From the NCBI RefSeq assembly GCF_054482595.1, contig NZ_CM137008.1: DNA of 64,000 nt. One strand, given 5' to 3'. Position 1 is the stretch's first letter. Every line of letters starts with the position of its first letter. Below the pieces are notes generated by a model that was not told the DNA's origin, made no database searches, and worked only from the letters and a program-made list of their open reading frames with translations. Positions 1 through 4,322 of this stretch are shown one piece after another. The position numbers were made by a program, and so were the translations under genes.

Positions 1-503
1 CGAAATCACTGAATGCTCTTTGAGTATATCTTCGCTGTCAGGTAACCAATGAACCCGTTCCACATCCCGGGAGCTTCTGGTACTGCGCCGCTTCGTCCGG
101 TGACACAAAGCTCTTACATTGCCCATGGCATCCATAATCAACTGCTCCAGAACAGGGGCATCGAAATACGCCTTTCGGGCACATCACACCACTTTATATT
201 CCGGCATATCAGGAGCATAGTTCCGGGTCAGAAGTACCGGTCATCAGATCGAGCAGGATGTCAGTCAATGCTGCCCCCGGGATTAACTATGCAGAAACAG
301 TCCTGAGACACAGACAAGATCAGAGACGACGCACGCGTGTGGTTGATTGACACCAACGTGCGGGTTCAGCGAATCAGCGATCACGGTGCGATTTCGCGCC
401 ACAGTACACAATCAATAGTAAGCGTAAACTGACCGCCGTATGTAGCCATTAAGCCTGTATTGGTAACGTAGGTGCCCACTTTTTCAACTAGTGGACACCT
501 GTT

Positions 504-710
504 ATGGAACAGAAAATATTATCCGCAGAACCCCGCAGAACATTTTCAAATGAGTTTAAACTTCAAATGGTTAAACTGGCTTCACAACCAGGAGCCTCTG
601 TTGCCCGTATTGCCAGGGAACACGATATCAATGATAATCTTCTGCTCAAATGGCTCTGGCTGATCGGCCTTCCCCCACTTTTTACGCGAGGTGATTATGA
701 AGATCAATGA
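504..710 (+). pseudogene. IS3-family transposase OrfA-like fragment (HTH N-terminus, truncated)
   Basis: 68-aa ORF with the typical IS3/IS911 OrfA N-terminal pattern (RRTFSNEFKLQMVKL...SVARIAREHDINDNLLLKWL); too short for an intact orfA and no orfB follows. Confidence 0.5.
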
Positions 711-3020: not shown

Positions 3021-3392
3021 TAGGTAAGTTCGTTCGAGAGGGATTTCAAGCAAAAACAATCAATGGCACCCAATAGAAAATATTGGCGATGTGCTCGAAC
3101 GAATAAAGAAGCCCTATGCGCAATCCACACGCTACGATGTTGCAACAACACTCCATCTACTTTTTATTCTCATTCACTAAATGTGGCTGTTCTGGATTCA
3201 TTATTCAAAGTGTGTACAAGATCACATTTAATCACTTCATTACGGTTCAGCATGCTGAACAAAGCATATTTTCCACTATGTAATGCCGATACCATTTATT
3301 CCATGAGCAAGGAGGAGCCATTATGGTTCGCAAAGGGGGTGATGCTGCCAACTTACTGATTTAGTGTATGATGGTGTTTTTGAGGTGCTCCA

Positions 3393-3668
3393 GTGGCTTC
3401 TGTTTCTATCAGCTGTCCCTCCTGTTCAGCTACTGACGGGGTGGTGCGTAACGGCAAAAGCACCGCCGGACATCAGCGCTATCTCTGCTCTCACTGCCGT
3501 AAAACATGGCAACTGCAGTTCACTTACACCGCTTCTCAACCCGGTACGCACCAGAAAATCATTGATATGGCCATGAATGGCGTTGGATGCCGGGCAACAG
3601 CCCGCATTATGGGCGTTGGCCTCAACACGATTTTACGTCACTTAAAAAACTCAGGCCGCAGTCGGTAA
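3393..3668 (+). CDS. insA: IS1 InsA
   Basis: 91-aa product [43 protein letters not shown]... is the canonical IS1 InsA. Confidence 0.95.
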
Positions 3669-4090
3669 CCTCGCGCATACAACCGGGCAGTGACGTCATC
3701 GTCTGCGCGGAAATGGACGAACAGTGGGGCTATGTCGGGGCTAAATCGCGCCAGCGCTGGCTGTTTTACGCGTATGACAGGCTCCGGAAGACGGTTGTTG
3801 CGCACGTATTCGGTGAACGCACTATGGCGACGCTGGGGCGTCTTATGAGGCTGCTGTCACCCTTTGACGTGGTGATATGGATGACGGATGGCTGGCCGCT
3901 GTATGAATCCCGCCTGAAGGGAAAGCTGCACGTAATCAGCAAGCGATATACGCAGCGAATTGAGCGGCATAACCTGAATCTGAGGCAGCACCTGGCACGG
4001 CTGGGACGGAAGTCGCTGTCGTTCTCAAAATCGGTGGAGCTGCATGACAAAGTCATCGGGCATTATCTGAACATAAAACACTATCAATAA
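3587..4090 (+). CDS. insB: IS1 InsB (normally expressed as InsAB' by -1 frameshift)
   Basis: 167-aa product ...[72 protein letters not shown] is canonical IS1 InsB. Confidence 0.9.
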
Positions 4091-4322
4091 GTTGGAGTCA
4101 TTACCGAATCAACCTATGGTGCGGTATGTTTAAGTATGCCGGTATTCAATATGTATAACAGAGTTAACTATGCAATCTCACTTTCTGGCGATCCGGTAAT
4201 TTATTCAGGAAATAAGATAGACAGCTATCTGGAGTTGCTCCGGAAATGCACAGGGCAAATATCATATGGGCTGGGATACAGAAACGAAAATGAACATTTA
4301 CGAAAAGGAAACTGAGGTAATG

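Follow-up and report, generated by a model that had tools for sequence, protein, structure and literature searches.

Features at the start of the window

The window, a stretch of 64,000 nucleotides from contig NZ_CM137008.1 (RefSeq assembly GCF_054482595.1), holds no intact gene between positions 1 and 417. The only sizeable open reading frame (ORF) there codes for 85 amino acids on the plus strand (49-306) and has no match in Pfam or PHROG. The first-pass annotation had described the first ~500 bp as preceding a helix-turn-helix transposase ORF (504-710) and as containing only this 85-aa ORF, and this description holds. In BLASTN searches, positions 1-900 are 100% identical in 10 complete E. 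coli genomes or chromosomes, one of which, NZ_CP032426 (locus L001), is identical to the window up to position 3337. Positions are given below in window coordinates, which equal the L001 position minus 8000, and negative values lie upstream of the window start. The features identified in and around the relic are as follows.

ending at -247, minus strand: truncated IS66-family tnpC (PGAP, identical genomes)
-151..-246, minus strand: N-terminus of an alpA-type regulator, residues 1-32 at 72-81% identity, directly downstream of the pseudogene (tblastn); annotated as a 96-bp partial pseudogene (PGAP, identical genomes)
234..1 and on for 82 bases past the window start to its stop codon, minus strand: dead remnant of the C-terminal part of a ~190-aa island protein, codons ~83-190 (tblastn, codon-aware alignment, PGAP); annotated at -82..234 in the identical genomes as a hypothetical protein pseudogene, frameshifted, with an internal stop and a missing N-terminus
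235..265, minus strand: deletion junction (homology to locus L005 in two blocks; same joined architecture in L003 and L008)
252..311, minus strand: start (~15-20 codons) of a 66-aa ORF for a C-terminal YagK/YfjJ fragment, cut by the deletion (tblastn of L004:4849-5046)
312..417, minus strand: non-coding spacer of the island module (homology to L004 and L005)
49..306, plus strand: 85-aa ORF, antisense to the decayed gene (ORF list)
418..661, plus strand: IS66-family left end, with a terminal repeat starting GTAAGCGTAAAC and, from 504, tnpA codons 1 to ~50 (comparison of contexts, NCBIfam)

Downstream, the identical genomes carry a PTS IIC fragment, an epimerase fragment, sgcR and yjhI/H/G/F (PGAP), and we take sgcR and the yjh genes to be those of the K-12 KpLE2 region. 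The 36 kb upstream in an identical genome show nothing but mosaic island and IS genes, with neither an integrase nor a tRNA among them. Some 35 kb before the window begins (L013 1-1600; NZ_CP032426 862000-863600), the AlpA - hypothetical - ProQ/FinO part of the island module described below occurs in a second and apparently intact copy in the opposite orientation, after which comes a LacI/PTS IIA-IIB-IIC/transketolase operon. The presence of this second copy means that two or more related pieces of islands are combined in the region. In the O157:H16 strain Santai, a gene annotated as 'enterotoxin' (WP_040235199; L002 1-76, NZ_CP007592 4993174-4995063) is located ~8 kb before the window begins, beside IS66 copies, and strain SCEC020001 has an intact IS66 tnpC at the same place.

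Decay of the ~190-residue gene and the deletion beside it

The 190-aa protein WP_032153703, encoded in L007, was used as the intact reference for the decayed gene. In tblastn its residues 83-155 align with window 234..16, and residues 123-190 align in a different frame with 109..-79 (E values of 6e-15 and 4e-13). Codon-aware alignment over 234..-82 gives 82.6% nucleotide identity to the intact gene and reveals six indels (+6, -1, -5, +1, -1, -10) and one in-frame stop, together with the loss of codons 1-82. The mismatches are spread evenly over the three codon positions (15/19/20), which is what is expected once a gene is no longer under selection. The remnant of the alpA-type regulator that follows is in turn cut off by the IS66 tnpC remnant.

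A deletion beside the gene can be located by comparison with strain CFT073 (L005). Homology to this strain covers window -247..217 and 266..417, in two blocks that are 776 bp apart in CFT073 and 49 bp apart in the window, so that ~730 bp of CFT073 (L005 5183-5959) are absent between window positions 217 and 266. Within this interval, positions 235..265 may still carry codons ~66-82 of the ~190-aa gene in a badly decayed state. L003 and L008 are colinear with the window, and L004-L007 are so segment by segment. The joined (deleted) architecture is also found in L003 and L008, at only ~80% identity to the window, and at least 80% of the 1-417 query is covered in about 405 genomes; the deletion is therefore old. 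The deletion-type copies carry differing indels and are either marked as pseudogenes or left unannotated by PGAP.

On the other side of the junction, residues 1-20 of the 66-aa ORF (L004:4849-5046) are found at window 311..252 with 70% identity (tblastn, E 3e-5). In other genomes this ORF is open, and the annotation of L004, L011 and L012 names it as a YagK/YfjJ domain-containing protein; it matches PF11726 at profile positions 119-167 in Pfam. It corresponds to the C-terminal third of the YagK/YfjJ domain only (L004 4849-5046, L011 2349-2546, L012 2348-2545), and is open in several divergent island lineages, immediately upstream of a full YagK/YfjJ gene. In intact islands the spacer that comes before it is located downstream of a gene for a 'putative zinc ribbon protein'. 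Window 266-417 has 85.5% identity to L004 5001-5152 and to L005 5959-6110, and its conservation (85%) is somewhat above that of the coding part (78-81%).

An IS66-family end at position 418

The right boundary of the relic was defined by aligning the window with pO113, L009, L008 and L007. Four unrelated contexts (the window, pO113, L009 and L008) have their sequence in common from exactly position 418 (GTAAGCGTAAACTGACC...), with unrelated left flanks. The stretch that had been left unassigned in the first-pass annotation, 1-500, consequently ends at 417, with an IS terminus at 418. In a search restricted to near-identity mode, plasmid matches to the 1-900 query likewise begin only at position 401 or beyond.

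The neighbour to the right had been read as an IS3-family OrfA fragment. NCBIfam models favour a different assignment, with E values for ORF 504-710 of 1e-17 and 1e-14 for IS66 TnpA versus 9e-5 for an IS3 transposase, and the IS3 identity was rejected on the comparison of 9e-5 with 1e-17. The scores of the window fragment (64.4 and 54.6 bits) are below the NCBIfam cut-off because the fragment is truncated, and a full-length relative on pO113, with 96% nucleotide identity, reaches 84.9 bits against the cut-off of 74 of NF047595. IS66-family terminal repeats that begin with GTAAGCG have been documented (PMC12888890). Taken together, the TnpA scores, the passing score of the pO113 relative and the GTAAGCG repeats identify the neighbour as a left-end fragment of an IS66-family element, and not of IS3. 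Neither tnpB nor tnpC is present in the neighbour at 418-661, and homology to IS copies ends at 661.

From position 650 onwards the window matches L009 with 96.8% identity (650-1854) and runs into a PTS IIC gene; compared with L009 it has an 82-bp deletion, which lies at an overlap of 12 bp (650-661). In L009 the same IS66 tnpA fragment adjoins an intact ascorbate-type PTS IIC-IIB-IIA operon. The IIC gene of the window breaks off at ~1854-1860, where it is joined to the 3' part of an epimerase gene that lies upstream of sgcR; two islands meet here in a chimeric junction. Further along, a 768-bp IS1 copy is found at 3338-4105 (InsA/InsB ORFs at 3393-4090) which is missing from the otherwise identical L001. 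It stands in place of 564 bp of L001 (11338-11901), so that the 5' part of yjhI is gone, which suggests a deletion that is associated with IS1 and specific to the strain of the window.

The island module and its distribution

Sensitive BLASTN detects paralogues of 1-417, at 70-85% identity, in 2890 of the 5426 complete E. coli genomes, at 1-7 sites per genome that are nearly all chromosomal; the sequence is absent from nearly half of the genomes. No match was found in the phage records searched with 1-417. Queries with 1-214 land in genes annotated as 'hypothetical protein', and queries with 266-417 land beside or in genes for 'YagK/YfjJ domain-containing protein'. In the orientation of the window, the genes of the module are on the minus strand and succeed one another as follows.

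Hha
Gp2/YagK, ~200 aa
two 'putative zinc ribbon' genes
66-aa YagK/YfjJ fragment ORF, in some cases accompanied by a 189-aa YagK/YfjJ gene
~190-aa hypothetical protein
AlpA-family regulator
hypothetical protein
ProQ/FinO

The module is intact in L006, L007 and L014, near genes for YfjI, YfjP GTPase, antirestriction, RadC, CbtA/YeeU, AlpA and ProQ/FinO. In strain PKF4 it is part of a typical CP4-type island backbone (YfjI, YfjP GTPase, DUF932, antirestriction, RadC, YeeU/CbtA, DUF4942), next to cadCBA. The succession of YagK/Gp2 gene(s), the 190-aa gene and an AlpA-family regulator (PF05930) occurs at the relic and in L003, L005, L006 and L007, and PF05930 is carried by the fusion calls. The flanks of the chromosomal sites of the relatives differ (McrBC, cadCBA, PTS operons and others), and island backbone genes are always found around them.

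Family of the decayed gene

The intact 190-aa protein WP_032153703 has no direct match in Pfam (E of 0.01 or lower), NCBIfam or PHROG. Its family consists of 62 clusters in a collection of 5.8 billion sequences, where all the names given by the source are E. coli, and a search of 1.84 billion representatives returned 46 matches, which are mostly fragments. This latter search also yielded two distant full-length relatives. One of them, P0077, is found by the 190-aa profile with an E value of 5e-16 over residues 7-190, and itself passes the PF11726 (YagK_YfjJ_C) threshold with 41.8 versus 25.8 bits. The contigs with P0077 have island-like genes around it, and on one of them AlpA-type and REP_ORF2-G2P-like genes are located upstream.

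Comparison by hhalign of the shallow 190-aa profile with a set of YagK/Gp2 proteins gave a probability of 11%, which rose to 92.8% (E 3.9e-7, 109 columns) when the two distant relatives were added. The motifs R-x-x-L-R-x-P, Y-H-V-V-L and L-I-x-x-A-W are common to the 190-aa protein and the YagK/Gp2 proteins. BLASTP of the 190-aa protein against one Gp2-family protein gave a weak motif match only (E 0.02). The AlphaFold2 model of the family, built on an alignment of only 11 sequences, has a mean pLDDT of 43.4 and a pTM of 0.34, which is too poor for a fold search. The bridge through P0077 and the increase of the hhalign probability from 11% to 92.8% lead us to assign the 190-aa 'hypothetical' family, on sequence comparison, to a putative divergent branch of YagK/YfjJ (PF11726, inovirus Gp2-like). 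Given the lack of a direct family match, the 11% of the first hhalign comparison and the unusable AlphaFold model, this assignment rests on one bridging sequence and one hhalign result.

Search for residual function

No promoter- or terminator-like site was found in 1-417 by a site scan. Folding of 240-417 on both strands shows no excess of stability (z-scores of 0.32 and 0.04), and in an alignment folding of seven copies of the same segment none of the 39 pairs is compensatory and the covariation term is unfavourable. A repeat search around the relic gave only short two-copy matches, which were taken as chance, and no inverted repeat that brackets 1-417. The sole match in the Rfam scan is AfaR (RF02515) at 403-496 on the minus strand; with 50.5 bits against a gathering score of 100 and a coverage of model positions 26-120 of 234, it is below the Rfam threshold and partial, and no other Rfam family was found. 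The position of this match coincides with the IS66-family left end. The 3' end of afaR was reported to be IS-derived in the work that describes AfaR (PMC3664800). Part of the Rfam AfaR model thus seems to be IS sequence, and can be expected to match such IS ends elsewhere.

Origin of the relic

It is very probable that window 1-417, together with the 246 bases upstream, is a non-functional relic, in minus-strand orientation, of the conserved accessory module of a CP4-type island of E. coli, with a divergent YagK/YfjJ gene and bounded by IS66 sequences. From position 417 downwards, it comprises the spacer that follows the zinc-ribbon gene, the first codons of the YagK/YfjJ fragment ORF, a deletion junction near 218-265 and the decayed 3' two-thirds of the ~190-aa gene, and codons 1-32 of an alpA-type regulator follow upstream of the window. 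The fragments that bound the relic on both sides are of the IS66 family, namely the truncated tnpC upstream of the window and the left terminal repeat at 418, and IS66 insertions with adjacent deletions would have taken away the rest of the module. The fragment has probably been in neutral drift since then, and presumably serves no function at present. What is observed directly is the homologies and lesions, the boundaries and the distribution of copy numbers, and we infer the order of events and the lack of function. This is ordinary genome decay, already marked as a pseudogene by RefSeq in the identical genomes.

The first-pass annotation had suspected a mobile-element remnant with transposase-like translations on the reverse strand. 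In the broad sense this is correct, given that a decayed module of a CP4-type integrative island is a mobile-element remnant. In the narrower sense of a remnant of an insertion sequence or of a transposase gene, the tblastn and Pfam results speak against it. The position of 1-417 between two IS66-family fragments, in a region dense in IS66, IS1, IS3 and IS110 copies, would fit such an origin. Nonetheless, a Pfam scan of nine short ORF translations (five on the minus and four on the plus strand), taken from 1-500 and from the 82 bases upstream, gives no transposase family at an E value of 1 or lower, and the minus strand instead matches an island protein that is not a transposase, with an E value of 6e-15. 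Moreover, IS sequence starts only at 418, plasmid IS copies stop leftward at ~401-418, and 1-417 is not bracketed by an inverted repeat, which makes a transposase origin very improbable indeed. That an ordinary, non-mobile gene of the core chromosome is the source of the fragment is barely credible. A non-mobile gene that continues past the window start had been envisaged in the first-pass annotation, and a clear match to a gene does extend over -82..234. This gene is, however, not non-mobile, given that it is island-borne, multi-copy and variably located, with up to 7 places per genome; its relatives occupy varied sites with varied flanks, always in an island backbone, and are missing from nearly half of the E. 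coli genomes.

A functional element in 1-417, be it a small protein (encoded by the 85-aa ORF or by a YagK-like ORF of reduced length), a promoter or a regulatory RNA, the latter two within the spacer 266-417, would be in line with the 85% identity of the spacer between island lineages, slightly above that of the adjoining coding DNA, and with the wide occurrence of the joined architecture in the ~405 genomes that cover at least 80% of the query. It is nevertheless distinctly improbable. The 85-aa ORF has no homologous family and is a chance ORF antisense to a pseudogene, and the deletion-type copies, with their differing indels, are treated by PGAP as pseudogenes or not annotated at all. The folding z-scores, the absence of compensatory pairs and the unfavourable covariation argue against a structured RNA, and the scans of 1-417 offer neither promoter- nor terminator-like sites, the only Rfam match being the sub-threshold, IS-derived AfaR. 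Retention of the joined architecture for a regulatory role of spacer 266-417 or for a shortened product, rather than as debris, is slightly more improbable still.

With the relic of a CP4-type island module as the preferred reading, the gain is a small one of annotation. The ~190-aa 'hypothetical protein' that is widespread in E. coli islands becomes assignable to a probable divergent YagK/YfjJ (Gp2-like) branch, and ORF 504-710 is to be relabelled as an IS66-family TnpA fragment, with the IS terminus at 418. Otherwise the stretch matters little.

Comparison with known systems

The neighbour of the relic resembles IS66-family insertion sequences in that its terminal repeat starts with GTAAGCG and is followed by a TnpA-type helix-turn-helix ORF, but differs from them in keeping only ~244 bp of the left end.

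The ancestral gene resembles the YagK/YfjJ family (PF11726, 'inovirus Gp2 family protein', represented in CP4-6 and CP4-57) in its profile alignment, in its motifs and in having a relative above the Pfam cut-off, and the ~190-aa gene sits beside YagK/Gp2 paralogues and an AlpA-type regulator. The 190-aa branch differs from the rest of the family in being extremely narrow and in being missed by the Pfam, NCBIfam and PHROG models, and the copy in the window is only a frameshifted 3' fragment. We know of no member of the YagK/YfjJ family with a tested function.

The gene pool and gene order of the intact module are those of CP4-type islands, namely CP4-57, CP4-44, CP4-6, KpLE2 and tRNA-associated pathogenicity islands. 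In contrast with these islands, the relic described here is reduced to only ~660 bp between IS66-family fragments, with an internal deletion of ~730 bp relative to CFT073.
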